From assembly GCA_963675665.1 (NCBI GenBank), contig OY776510.1, positions 1,344,001-1,408,000 on the forward strand: a stretch of 64,000 bases of DNA, read 5' to 3'. A program made the translations under genes and the position numbers. The notes under the pieces were generated by a model, which saw nothing but the letters and a program-made list of their open reading frames with translations, searched no databases and had not been told where the DNA came from. Source of the stretch: Spirochaetia bacterium. Lineage in GTDB: Bacteria > Spirochaetota > Spirochaetia > UBA9216. Below, in pieces: positions 4,849 through 7,713 of this stretch (positions are counted from its first letter, which is position 1; each line of letters starts with the position of its first letter).

Positions 4849-5698
4849 AAACCCCTGTTTTGCGGAGCGACTCCCGCAGGCGGGTTCTGTCAGCTTTACA
4901 TGGCTTGGACAGGCGGGATTTCTTGTTGAAAGCGCTGAAGTAAGGATAGTTATTGATCCCTATCTGTCAGATTCGTTGTATGATAAATACAAGGATAAGA
5001 AATTTCCGCATGTCCGTATGGTCCCTGCTCCTCTGCGTCCTGATGAACTGACGCAGATTGATTTGGTACTGTGTACACACGGGCATACCGATCATATGGA
5101 TCCGGGAACTCTGCCGGTACTTGCTTCAGTCAATCCGGGATGCAGGTTTATCTGTCCGGCTTCTGAAAAGGAAAAAGCTCTGGACCGGGGTGTTCCGGCG
5201 GCAATGTTTATCGGCCTTGATGATGGAGGACGGTTTGACGACAGCTTAAACAGCGGCATCGTCGTATCGGCAGTTGCTTCTGCTCATGAGACGCTTGAAA
5301 AGGACAGTTCCGGCCGAAGTCTGTTTTTGGGATATGTGATCGGGATTAACGGTTTGAAAATATACCATTCCGGCGATTGTATTCCGTATAATGGCCTGTG
5401 GGAAAAACTGCTGAATCTGAAAATTGATATTGCATTTCTTCCTGTAAACGGGCGTGACGATTTTCGTAAATCCAACGGGATTCCCGGAAATTTTACGGTT
5501 GAGGAAGCTGCAGATCTCTGCAGCAACGCCGGAATAGAAGTTTTGATTCCTCATCATTTTGGAATGTTTGTTTTTAATTCCGGGGACCCTCAAAAAATTG
5601 AGCAGGTATTGTCGAAATCAGGTCTAAAATATACAATTCCCGAAATTGGTAAAAAAACTGAGTTTATTAAAAGGGAATATTCGGTAAGTTTTTTATAG
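4841..5698 (+). CDS. MBL-fold metallo-hydrolase (UlaG/sugar lactonase-like)
   Basis: WLGQAGF, IDPYLS, THGHTDH, HSGD, PVNG, IPHH. Confidence 0.85.
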   Translation: MVENPCFAERLPQAGSVSFTWLGQAGFLVESAEVRIVIDPYLSDSLYDKYKDKKFPHVRMVPAPLRPDELTQIDLVLCTHGHTDHMDPGTLPVLASVNPGCRFICPASEKEKALDRGVPAAMFIGLDDGGRFDDSLNSGIVVSAVASAHETLEKDSSGRSLFLGYVIGINGLKIYHSGDCIPYNGLWEKLLNLKIDIAFLPVNGRDDFRKSNGIPGNFTVEEAADLCSNAGIEVLIPHHFGMFVFNSGDPQKIEQVLSKSGLKYTIPEIGKKTEFIKREYSVSFL

Positions 5699-5726
5699 GA
5701 GGAATGATAAAAAGTCTTCATGAGCT

Positions 5727-5879
5727 GGTGAATTGATATACTGCCTTAACTTTAATTGAGGCAGTAAGGTTACTGTTCGACATTTTTACTGGTCCGCGAG
5801 ACCGTTTAGGAGATTGAAGAGCCGTAACCGAAACATTCAATGGTCTGCGAGACCGGATAGGAGAATGGAACAATTCACC
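5727..5879 (+). ncRNA. Predicted bridge/seek RNA of the IS110-family element
   Basis: Outer stem GGTGAATTG 5727-5735/CAATTCACC 5871-5879; 5' hairpin 5739-5766; two loop modules each capped by GGTC-YGCGA-GACC and flanked by segments matching the target and donor junctions. Confidence 0.75.
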
Positions 5880-5914
5880 GTATAGGCACTGCTTCAAACT
5901 ATTGGAGATAGAAC

Positions 5915-7027
5915 ATGAAGATGAGTATTGGCGTGGATCTTCACAAAACGCAGTTTACAGTATGCCTTTTAAGTGAAGACCGAAAAATTGATCAATTGGG
6001 AATGTATCCGACCAGCGGAAATGGTTATGGAGCATTTCTGAAAATGCTGGATGAATATTGTGAAGAGGAATATGAGTTGAGAGCAGCGGTGGAAACAACC
6101 GGGAATGCCCGTTATTTCCGCAATAAACTGTTAAAGGCTGGAGTCGAAGTGGTTGTAGTGAATACTTTGAAATTCAAGGTAGTGAATGAATCTGTAAAAA
6201 AGACAGACAAACATGATGCACGCACCCTGGCGGAGTTTCTTGAGAAAGACATGCTGCCTGAATCGATATTATGTTCCCAAGAGAGTGAGGATATTCGAAG
6301 GGTGCTGAAATCCAGGTCGATACTGGTAAAATCTGTTGTGTCGTTAAAGAACCAGGTGCATGGCTTATTACTTGGTTATGGAATAGAGACCAAACGCGGA
6401 CAGCTGCAGAGTAAAAAAGAAAGGCAGCGAATCCTGAACGGTCTCGAGGACCACGACTTTTACGGAAGCGCTGCCAAAACGGTAATACCGTTACTGGATA
6501 TGATAGATAATCAGGCATCGCAAGTCAAGCAGCTTGAAAAGGTTTTGGCTGAGCTTGTGGAGGACGATGAAGATGTTGAGCTTCTGCAGACAATACCAGG
6601 CGTGGGTCTAATAACAGCAGCAACAGTAAGAGCCTATACAGACGATATCGGCAGATATGATAGTGCGAAGAAATATGCAGCAAACGCCGGGCTTGTGCCA
6701 TGGGTGCAGAACTCAAATATGACAATACATCATGGACATATAACAAAGCGTGGGCCTGTAGAACTGAGGACAGCCTTCGTACAGATGGTGATGGGAATGG
6801 TTCGTATGCAAAAGAAGACCGGGACGTACCGAATAATGACGAAGTATGCAGCGATGAAGAAGCAGAAAGGCTCGGGTAAGAGTGTAATAGCTGCCGCCCG
6901 CAAGATGAGCACTTTGGTATATACAATTTTAAAAACCAGAGAGCCGTTTGATCCGATGAAAATGGCTTTTAGAAAAGAATACAGGGAAATGCAGGCAGCA
7001 GCATGGGAAGCTGTAATGGTCGGTTGA
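5915..7027 (+). CDS. IS110 family transposase (DEDD RuvC-like recombinase)
   Basis: IGVDLHK, AVETTG, KTDKHDA, LQTIPGVG, AGLVPxxxNS, HITKRG..LR. Confidence 0.95.
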   Translation: MKMSIGVDLHKTQFTVCLLSEDRKIDQLGMYPTSGNGYGAFLKMLDEYCEEEYELRAAVETTGNARYFRNKLLKAGVEVVVVNTLKFKVVNESVKKTDKHDARTLAEFLEKDMLPESILCSQESEDIRRVLKSRSILVKSVVSLKNQVHGLLLGYGIETKRGQLQSKKERQRILNGLEDHDFYGSAAKTVIPLLDMIDNQASQVKQLEKVLAELVEDDEDVELLQTIPGVGLITAATVRAYTDDIGRYDSAKKYAANAGLVPWVQNSNMTIHHGHITKRGPVELRTAFVQMVMGMVRMQKKTGTYRIMTKYAAMKKQKGSGKSVIAAARKMSTLVYTILKTREPFDPMKMAFRKEYREMQAAAWEAVMVG

Positions 7028-7089
7028 TATCCGACTAGATCATAAGCTTATATTTTTAGCTTGTGGTTGACTTTTTATAGGAGAAAAGA

Positions 7090-7713
7090 ATGAGTGATAT
7101 TTTTGAAACAATAGGCAGAATAAAACTGGTGCCGGTTGTCAAGATAGATGATGCAAAGGATGCTCCGGCATTGGGCAAAGCTTTATGCGACGGAGGGCTT
7201 CCGATTGCCGAGGTTACTTTCAGAACGGCAGCCGCAGAAGAGGCTATCAGGCTGATGGTGAAAGAAAACAGCGGGATGCTTATCGGAGCAGGTACCGTGC
7301 TGACTGTTGAAAACGCAAAAAAAGCGATTGATGCAGGAGCCGCGTTTATAGTGTCTCCGGGCTTCAATCCTGAAGTTGTAGATTTTTGTATTTCCCAGGG
7401 AATGCCGGTAACTCCGGGAGTTACAAACCCAACCCAGGTCGAGATGGGGTTGTCAAGAGGTTTAAAGGTTTTAAAGTTCTTTCCTGCTGAAGCCGCAGGC
7501 GGATTGAAGATGCTGAAGGCAATGGGAGCCGTATACGATGTGAAATTTATGCCTACAGGCGGAATTAACGCATCCAATTTGAAAGAATACCTGGCATATG
7601 ATAAAATACTTGCCTGTGGTGGAAGCTGGATGGTTAAAGCCGATCTGATCTCATCAGGGAACTTTGCCGAGATTACCAGACTGACTAAAGAGGCAATGGA
7701 ACTGACAAAGTAG
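7090..7713 (+). CDS. eda: KDPG/KHG aldolase
   Basis: EVTFRT, IGAGTVL, FIVSPG, PGVTNPT, KFFPA, FMPTGGI, ACGGSW. Confidence 0.95.
   Translation: MSDIFETIGRIKLVPVVKIDDAKDAPALGKALCDGGLPIAEVTFRTAAAEEAIRLMVKENSGMLIGAGTVLTVENAKKAIDAGAAFIVSPGFNPEVVDFCISQGMPVTPGVTNPTQVEMGLSRGLKVLKFFPAEAAGGLKMLKAMGAVYDVKFMPTGGINASNLKEYLAYDKILACGGSWMVKADLISSGNFAEITRLTKEAMELTK

Follow-up and report, generated by a model that had tools for sequence, protein, structure and literature searches.

Here, we describe a mobile element in a stretch of 64,000 nucleotides of a Spirochaetia bacterium (contig OY776510.1 of assembly GCA_963675665.1, positions 1,344,001 to 1,408,000 of the forward strand), which as a whole is called the window in the following. 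The segment 5702-7083 of this window appears to be an active-looking RNA-guided insertion sequence (IS) of the IS110 family, whose bridge RNA (or seek RNA) is naturally programmed for translation-initiation regions; we assign to this reading a probability of about 0.85. It is carried by the location of the genomic copies and by covariation between guide and DNA, which is clear for two of the four guide strands of the RNA and weak for a third.

Boundaries of the element and its insertion sites

The element (1382 bp, forward strand) was delimited by its genomic copies and by an empty site in a relative. The genome, a single contig of 5.15 Mb, contains 15 copies with 99.93-100% identity; seven of them are identical and eight carry one base change over the 1382 nt. 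In all 15 copies GAATGATA...ACTTTTTATAGGAG is invariant and the right end always reads TATAGGAG, the DNA left of the element being variable. A repeat search reveals a flanking repeat (5690-5707 and 7072-7089, spacing 1382 nt), and the left target flank TTTTTATAGGAG (5690-5701, forward strand) represents the native Shine-Dalgarno sequence of an eda-type aldolase gene. Left flank and right end agree over 12 nt in only four of the 15 copies and differ in the other 11. A constant right end next to variable DNA on the left means that the right-hand TATAGGAG is owned by the element, and the 12-nt direct repeat does not represent a duplication of the target site. An ordinary duplication caused by a conventional cut-and-paste transposase, for which the occurrence of TTTTTATAGGAG on both sides of the window copy would speak, is already refuted by these 11 differing left flanks and by the relative's empty site that keeps only one copy, so that this explanation can practically be dismissed.

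The empty site was provided by another study (run X5), in which a contig of 13,086 nt from a related organism joins 5702 to 7085 with exactly 1382 nt skipped and reads TATAGGAG-spacer-ATG where the element is lacking. The first-pass annotation of this DNA had reconstructed target and donor by removing and circularising the element. Its left target flank and its donor end GAATG were retained and the removal is supported by the empty site, with the element itself now placed at 5702-7083. The flanks in the run X5 contigs differ from the window at eight positions in about 1020 nt. One of these differences, G for A, affects the first spacer base (window 7084) next to the insertion point; it may be due to chance or represent a trace of exchange.

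Each of the 15 copies is located directly 3' of [A/T]AGGAG (TAGGAG in 13 and AAGGAG in two cases) and has an ATG 5-7 nt 3' of the element, with a spacer of 6 nt in 12 copies, 5 nt in two and 7 nt in one. All 15 downstream ATGs start open reading frames (ORFs) of 93-729 aa, and all copies are co-oriented with the downstream gene. Five of them, including that of the window, sit at gene junctions where a same-strand ORF of 251-454 aa ends 3-20 nt upstream. Outside the elements this genome comprises 2780 [A/T]AGGAG sites, of which 432 (15.5%) are followed by an ATG 5-7 nt downstream; the association of the copies with gene starts exceeds chance. The same location is found beyond this genome, since among 213 unique right-end sites from other genomes and from metagenomes 168 have an ATG at a spacer of 3-10 nt, compared with 36 after shuffling of the flanks, and the spacer mode is 6. 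The earlier proposals that the element homes to gene starts and that other insertions share TAGGAG or the context of a ribosome-binding site are borne out by these sites.

For tests of spacer and composition, 505 unoccupied gene-start sites of the same genome served as comparison set. Against this background the copies favour the 6-nt spacer (12/15 versus 30%, binomial 8e-5), and their 6 nt before the ATG match the 5' strand of the target loop better (3.27 versus 2.28 matches, p=0.0017). They are also richer in A at positions -4 to -1 before the ATG, which fits the guide (p=0.0003).

Relatives were collected by a scan of one genome per species that yielded 80 loci with 32-79% transposase identity, and a further 117 stretches came from metagenomes scanned with the 17-nt right end. 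The 80 loci occur in records assigned to Spirochaetota, Desulfobacterota, Lentisphaerota/Victivallales, Clostridia, Dysgonamonadaceae, Dehalococcoidales and Gracilibacteria (the last three being bins). In the parsed relatives the left flank ends in AGGAG in 73 of 78, and among the 71 with a right flank an ATG is found at spacer 3-10 in 65 (68 if GTG and TTG are counted). A second, distant clade from Lentisphaeria, Victivallales and Clostridia (32-40% transposase identity) exhibits flanks of the same appearance, its left end ATGGTATGATAAATA following ...GGAG and its right end reading TTTATCATAGGAG.

The gene of the transposase or recombinase (5915-7027, forward strand, 370 aa) matches Pfam PF01548 (DEDD_Tnp_IS110, residues 5-155, 9e-18) and PF02371 (Transposase_20, residues 222-303, 1e-17), as well as NCBIfam NF033542, "IS110 family RNA-guided transposase", with 216.8 bits at a cut-off of 140. 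The non-coding DNA of the element amounts to 213 nt on the 5' side of this ORF and to only 56 nt on its 3' side. All further features lie on the forward strand, too. The left end starts with the pentamer GAATG (5702-5706), the donor half-site for the 5' strand of the donor loop according to covariation in 45 lineages, and continues with the left subterminal inverted repeat ATAAAAAGTC (5707-5716) that is 100% complementary to the right one and kept in orthologues. Its perfect 10-nt partner GACTTTTTAT (7069-7078) precedes the right-end AGGAG (7079-7083), which is constant in 15/15 copies and in orthologues and represents a replacement Shine-Dalgarno sequence for the downstream gene. The right target flank (7084-7092) consists of the spacer AAAAGA and the ATG of a KDPG/KHG aldolase gene (ORF 7090-7713, Pfam Aldolase 3.9e-66), and the left flank at 5690-5701 overlaps the TAG stop (5696-5698) of an upstream gene with metallo-beta-lactamase fold, which ends at 5698. 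A 10-codon ORF from 5704 (MIKSLHELVN) was rejected since it is not conserved and GCACG variants of the left end lack its ATG.

The bridge RNA and its guide strands

The fold of the 213-nt leader beats all 200 shuffles (z=-4.45), and a core from 5727 to 5879 on the forward strand shows a covariation-supported structure. It comprises an outer stem (5727-5735 with 5871-5879), a 5' stem-loop (5740-5764), a target-binding loop (5768-5829) and a donor-binding loop (5830-5870). The two modules in these loops form a 39-nt direct repeat (5778-5816 and 5829-5867) with 77% identity. In the target loop the 5' strand CATTTTTACT (5781-5790) is antisense to the right flank and a candidate reader of spacer and ATG, followed by the hairpin GGTC-CGCGA-GACC (5791-5803; 100% of cells pair, compensatory changes in 2/5 pairs) and by the 3' strand TTAGGAG (5806-5812), which has the same sense as the left flank and would be the reader of the Shine-Dalgarno sequence. 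In the donor loop the 5' guide CATTC (5834-5838) is the complement of the left end GAATG, the hairpin GGTC-TGCGA-GACC (5842-5854) pairs in 99.6% of cells with 20-22 double changes at two pairs, and the 3' guide ATAGGAG (5857-5863) equals the last seven nucleotides of the element. Both look-alike modules had already been described in the first-pass annotation, and every position given there (CATTTTT 5781-5787, TTAGGAG 5806-5812, CATTC 5834-5838, ATAGGAG 5857-5863) is exact.

The structure was tested on 45 distinct leaders (alignment A1) and included the outer stem, the 5' stem-loop, the basal stem of module 1 and the two internal hairpins. In this alignment 85.6% of cells pair compared with 25-43% in slid controls, 27 of the 39 pairs have changes on both sides, and none of 500 shuffles exceeds the structure on any measure. 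The four guide-like strands are unpaired in the consensus structure. A search of Rfam with 5500-7300 returned chance-level matches only and no family. Pairing of CATTC (5834-5838) with GAATG (5864-5868), as proposed by a single-sequence fold, was rejected as the main role of this strand because orthologues with CATAC or CATGC have no 3' partner and it is the left end that covaries instead.

The covariation of guides with DNA was evaluated for the 3' strand of the target loop in 40 lineages of equal weight, and permutation of the guides among them served as control. This strand and its own left flank agree at position -7 in 73% of the lineages (32% after permutation) and at -6 in 94% (69% after permutation), and none of 5000 permutations attains the observed sum. 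At -8 there is no signal (18% versus 25% permuted, 40 lineages), which points to a guide of seven bases, NNAGGAG. Copies from Oceanispirochaeta with the guide ACAGGAG are found after ACAGGAG in 8/10 cases, those from Syntrophales with the guide AAAGGAG after AAAGGAG in 8/9. In the donor loop the pentamer shows perfect Watson-Crick pairing with the first 5 nt of the element in 39/45 lineages (42/45 with wobble), and these perfect pairs include all 30 GAATG lineages as well as 9/15 variant lineages, among them the compensated combinations GCACG/CGTGC, GCATG/CATGC, GTATG/CATAC and GAGTG/CACTC. This agreement is attained by none of 10000 permutations, and the assignment of module 2 to the donor made in the first-pass annotation is thereby supported. 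Its assignment of module 1 to the target is supported as well by the covariation at -7 and -6; the seven bases agree with the strand as drawn there, and a difficulty in this very genome is described below.

Alternatively, the protein could pick the target by direct recognition of AGGAG or of the T-rich end, the guide-like sequences being coincidental or otherwise used. The invariance of AGGAG would fit, and the left flanks in this genome are T-rich up to -11, which is beyond any guide. Nevertheless, positions -7 and -6 covary with the RNA over 40 lineages and the donor pentamer covaries with the left end, and insertion behind the ends of related elements largely accounts for the richness in T. 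A choice by the protein alone is therefore very improbable.

The remaining strand of the target loop needs a more careful wording. Its CAT is nearly invariant in alignment A1, and the 10-nt strand CATTTTTACT would span exactly one base, six spacer bases and the ATG, which fits the modal spacer. Fixed 6-nt spacing, A-rich spacers and weak covariation give moderate support to the view that the conserved CAT-N6-T strand reads spacer and start codon, and the same grade applies to the earlier proposal of a pairing of TTTT against AAAA together with the ATG.

Several observations weigh against a bridge RNA that is programmed for the complete translation-initiation region. The donor 3' strand ATAGGAG equals the last seven element bases everywhere, and the invariance of the two leaves nothing that could covary; AGGAG and the donor 3' guide never vary and their role as guides is assigned by analogy. 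A matrix of the 10-nt target-loop strand against the right flank shows no diagonal when anchored at the core (the insertion point), and the diagonal anchored at the ATG is weak, with z=2.5 in the expected register (19/3000 permutations) and z=2.7 at an unrelated shift of +2. A rigid 10-nt duplex does not accommodate the spacers of the different lineages, whose length varies between 3 and 10 nt, and an ATG at spacer 3-10 is lacking in 45 of the 213 right-end sites. In this genome the left flank reads ATAGGAG, like the donor guide and the element's own end, in 9/15 copies and TTAGGAG, like the target guide, in only 4/15, and unoccupied gene-start sites include 68 with ATAGGAG versus 46 with TTAGGAG, so there is no preference for the target guide at -7. 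The excess of ATAGGAG arises partly because TATAGGAG-spacer-ATG is formed anew at the right junction whenever an element inserts, and a tolerated mismatch at -7 or the use of the donor loop on targets could contribute further. At least 3/15 sites are right ends of related miniature elements, with three full copies sitting directly behind one, and consequently the sites are not fully independent. Finally, the production, ends and processing of the RNA as well as the circle junction with its promoter (discussed below) are predictions from the sequence.

A part of these points would be explained if only the Shine-Dalgarno half were RNA-guided. CATTTTTACT would then be structural or protein-binding, and the link to start codons would result from purifying selection and the restored Shine-Dalgarno sequence, with tolerant AGGAG sites being mostly real ribosome-binding sites. 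The lack of a diagonal in the core-anchored matrix, the weak and not unique ATG-anchored signal, the variable spacers and the 45 sites without ATG are compatible with this explanation, and the conserved loop nucleotides of IS621 include structural ones according to the available passages of PMC11208158. However, the 6-nt spacer (8e-5) and the A-rich positions -4 to -1 (p=0.0003) persist against a background of gene starts only, CATTC at the homologous positions in the donor loop is demonstrably a guide, and 15/15 copies versus 15.5% background would be extreme for selection alone. We consider a guide restricted to the Shine-Dalgarno half rather unlikely.

Attempts to enlarge the set of guide-flank pairs within the same phylum were not productive. 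The right-end motif was found in 36/401 genomes, and 60 stretches taken from there gave no new pairs; 53 of them exceed 1000 nt, none parsing as a full element with both loops, and seven end at a contig edge. Visual inspection of 15 of the 53 showed that many end in short repeats that bear the motif and contain no guide, and that others have no such repeat. A pattern search of five further genomes added only two new right flanks.

A few loci deviate from the common pattern. From a Leptospira bin (L073/L283), L073 lacks CAT in the target 5' strand (TCAGGGAAAT), has the 3' guide GTTGAGAG and sits after TTTTTAGAG with no ATG nearby, and its sequence suggests retargeting away from gene starts. In L128 the CAT is kept, the loop hairpin is much longer and the right flank has no ATG. 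Two right-end motifs 29 nt apart occur at one locus (L047/L099/L103, G002:C152:9739-9781), where the end is partly duplicated.

Two additional RNA features may concern the expression of the transposase. RNAalifold proposes an alternative, well compensated long-range helix (A1 columns 82-91 and 233-242, corresponding to about 5755-5764 and 5889-5898 of the window) connecting the 3' half of the 5' stem-loop with a segment just 5' of the transposase ribosome-binding site. It crosses the outer stem and could represent a pseudoknot or, alternatively, act as a switch by which the RNA changes between forms serving as guide and as mRNA. Furthermore, 6432-6453 inside the transposase ORF (codons ILNGLEDH) is complementary in 20/22 positions to 5790-5811, i.e. 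the target-loop hairpin and the start of the 3' guide. This complementarity of the ORF to its own target loop reaches 16-20/22 in 14 closer orthologues (shuffles max 14-16), and the homologous position of distant orthologues retains nothing but a hairpin of this shape. It could serve antisense or kissing-loop control of the transposase mRNA, or form a third protein-binding hairpin.

On this basis the AGGAG modules might be devices of translational control of the transposase (a decoy Shine-Dalgarno sequence or an attenuator) instead of DNA guides. Two AGGAG motifs in a structured leader, the helix that ties the leader to the segment just 5' of the ribosome-binding site and the ORF segment complementary to the target loop are in line with such control. 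It leaves the covariation with flanking DNA, outside of the regulatory region of the transcript, unexplained and is compatible with guidance as an added regulatory layer rather than as an alternative. As a replacement for DNA guidance it is hardly credible.

Proposed mechanism and miniature relatives

The RNA would originate from the 213-nt leader and present two internal loops of similar structure, both of them split by a hairpin. If the element circularised, ...TTGACTTTTTATAGGAG would be linked to GAATGATAAAAAG..., and the right and left ends would together complete a promoter that exists only in the circle. A putative -35 element TTGACT (7067-7072, forward strand) was read from the sequence and lies 17 nt from TAAAAA (5708-5713) across the circle junction. 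TAAAAA belongs to a putative extended -10 element TGaTAAAAA (5705-5713, forward strand), which overlaps the left inverted repeat and has its TG one base 5' of TAAAAA. Both promoter halves, including TTGAC, are conserved in orthologues. Among the run X5 contigs no junction-spanning contig was seen.

The RNA would then hold the donor junction and the region of Shine-Dalgarno sequence and start codon, with recombination at their shared AG, which is CT on the opposite strand. This AG closes both left flank and element in all copies, but the identity of the two extends over the entire AGGAG, and the AG is thus a putative crossover point. The element lands between Shine-Dalgarno sequence and start codon and invariably points in the same direction as the gene. 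Since its right end closes in TATAGGAG, the gene gets a new Shine-Dalgarno sequence, spaced as before. The prediction for 5600-7200 gave no terminator-like site, which together with the co-orientation means that transcription of a host operon can enter the element and continue into the gene; host transcription could thus run through RNA gene, transposase gene and target gene. The right junction re-creates a target-like site, which explains tandem arrays and insertions behind related miniature elements.

About 18 of such miniature elements (100-160 bp) are present in this genome. They share the left end GAATGATAAAA, followed by a hairpin ending TTTTATCATT, an internal hairpin and the same right end (…TTTTTATAGGAG), and are mostly located after GGAG and before ATG, with a left flank that ends in GAG in 15/18. 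Examples are found in the coordinates of this genome near 2400711, 2525929 and 4968481 on the forward and near 738945 on the reverse strand, and three units form a tandem array at 2973164-2973366 (reverse strand). From their sequence they look like non-autonomous derivatives that supply ribosome-binding sites. Guide-less repeats are known also from other genomes of the same phylum (loci L234-L293 in G255, G319, G340, G205, G240, G143, G370 and others), where the 17-nt motif often occurs in short repeats (…ATAAAAAGTCAA…TTGACTTTTTATAGGAG) with an ATG 5-6 nt later and no adjacent transposase gene within 1.5 kb.

These traits may be joined into a single picture, which we put forward tentatively and with somewhat less than even confidence. 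A widespread clade in Spirochaetota, Desulfobacterota, Lentisphaerota and other phyla would possess a bridge RNA that reads both translation signals, the Shine-Dalgarno sequence via the invariant AGGAG guide and the start codon via the invariant CAT in fixed register. It would offset the cost of insertion with a replacement Shine-Dalgarno sequence, ride on operon transcription and regenerate the target at the right junction, seeding arrays and miniature derivatives that act as a "portable ribosome-binding site". Pairing between target loop and its own transposase mRNA may restrain the element.

Relation to known elements and significance

The window element shows the typical traits of the IS110 family, namely DEDD/RuvC-like and Tnp domains, a structured RNA with two loops, guide covariation and site- and orientation-specific insertion without duplication. 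As far as the available passages on IS621 and the IS110-group bridge-RNA elements go (Durrant 2024, PMC11208160; Hiraizumi 2024, PMC11208158), these and the window element have in common a DEDD/RuvC and Tnp recombinase, an upstream non-coding RNA and two pseudo-symmetric loops each with an internal hairpin; candidate common features are a dinucleotide shared by donor and target that reads CT on one strand and a promoter predicted to be split across the ends. In the loops of IS621 the left, bottom-strand-pairing guide is positioned 5' of the hairpin and the right, top-strand-pairing guide 3' of it, according to the same passages (PMC11208160, PMC11208158). In contrast, the window element reverses this order in both loops, with the top-strand-pairing guide 5' and the bottom-strand-pairing guide 3'. 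It also differs by its 10-bp subterminal inverted repeats and by a target that is a generic functional signal and not a REP-type repeat. Canonical IS110 insertion is described in the available text of a preprint as not regenerating the target (10.64898/2026.08.14.744561), whereas the right junction of the window element re-creates a target-like site.

Reversed guide order is known from the IS1111 seekRNA elements ISEc11, ISPa11 and ISKpn4, for which the accessible passages of Siddiquee 2024 (PMC11187229) describe subterminal inverted repeats of usually 11-13 bp, terminal extensions of 7/3 bp and a non-coding region usually downstream of the gene with few upstream exceptions. As in these elements, the complement of the top strand comes before the match to the bottom strand in both loops of the window element (5781-5790 before 5806-5812 in the target loop), and subterminal inverted repeats are present, measuring 10 bp in the window and up to about 14 bp in orthologues with ...GTCAACC / GGTTGAC.... 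The extensions are 5 + 5 bp as drawn here and would become 7 (AGGAATG) + 3 (AGG) if the shared AG is assigned to the left. Unlike in typical IS1111 elements, the non-coding region lies upstream of the transposase gene. The layout is a hybrid between IS110 and IS1111.

An article by Doran et al. from 1997 is reportedly entitled "IS900 targets translation initiation signals...". IS901 and IS902 are placed beside IS900. As the homing of IS900 to translation signals has been known since 1997, the present clade is not a new class, and the novelty implied in the first-pass annotation was overrated. For IS900 of Mycobacterium avium subsp. paratuberculosis the target motif CATGNNNNNNTCTCCTT is given in the available part of Conde 2021 (PMC8141618). 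IS900, too, belongs to the IS110 family and inserts at translation-initiation signals, its motif being the reverse complement of Shine-Dalgarno sequence, spacer and ATG. By our own reading, this motif on the IS strand, CATG-N6-TCTCCTT, implies an orientation opposite to the target gene, whereas the window clade is co-oriented and, in contrast with IS900 as described in that part, brings its own Shine-Dalgarno sequence at the gene-facing end. In the literature on IS110 and bridge RNA the term Shine-Dalgarno occurs, within the passages available from a matching paper, only in the legend of a riboswitch. The terms ribosom-, RBS and start codon are absent from a large comparative IS110 preprint, and the supplements of Durrant 2024 and of the 2026 preprints might list the clade.

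The present data offer an RNA-guided explanation at sequence level for the old observation that some IS110-family elements home to translation-initiation signals, and they support this widespread clade as a clear natural example of a bridge or seek RNA whose programmed target is a universal functional signal. For the engineering of bridge recombinases the natural combination of reversed guide order and upstream RNA, the long (10-nt) right-side strand and the target-regenerating right junction are of relevance. For the biology of the family the element represents a low-cost strategy of insertion, in which the gene keeps a ribosome-binding site and its operon can transcribe the element. Its target is a signal found in almost every bacterium, and this may explain the near-identical ends in records from several phyla.

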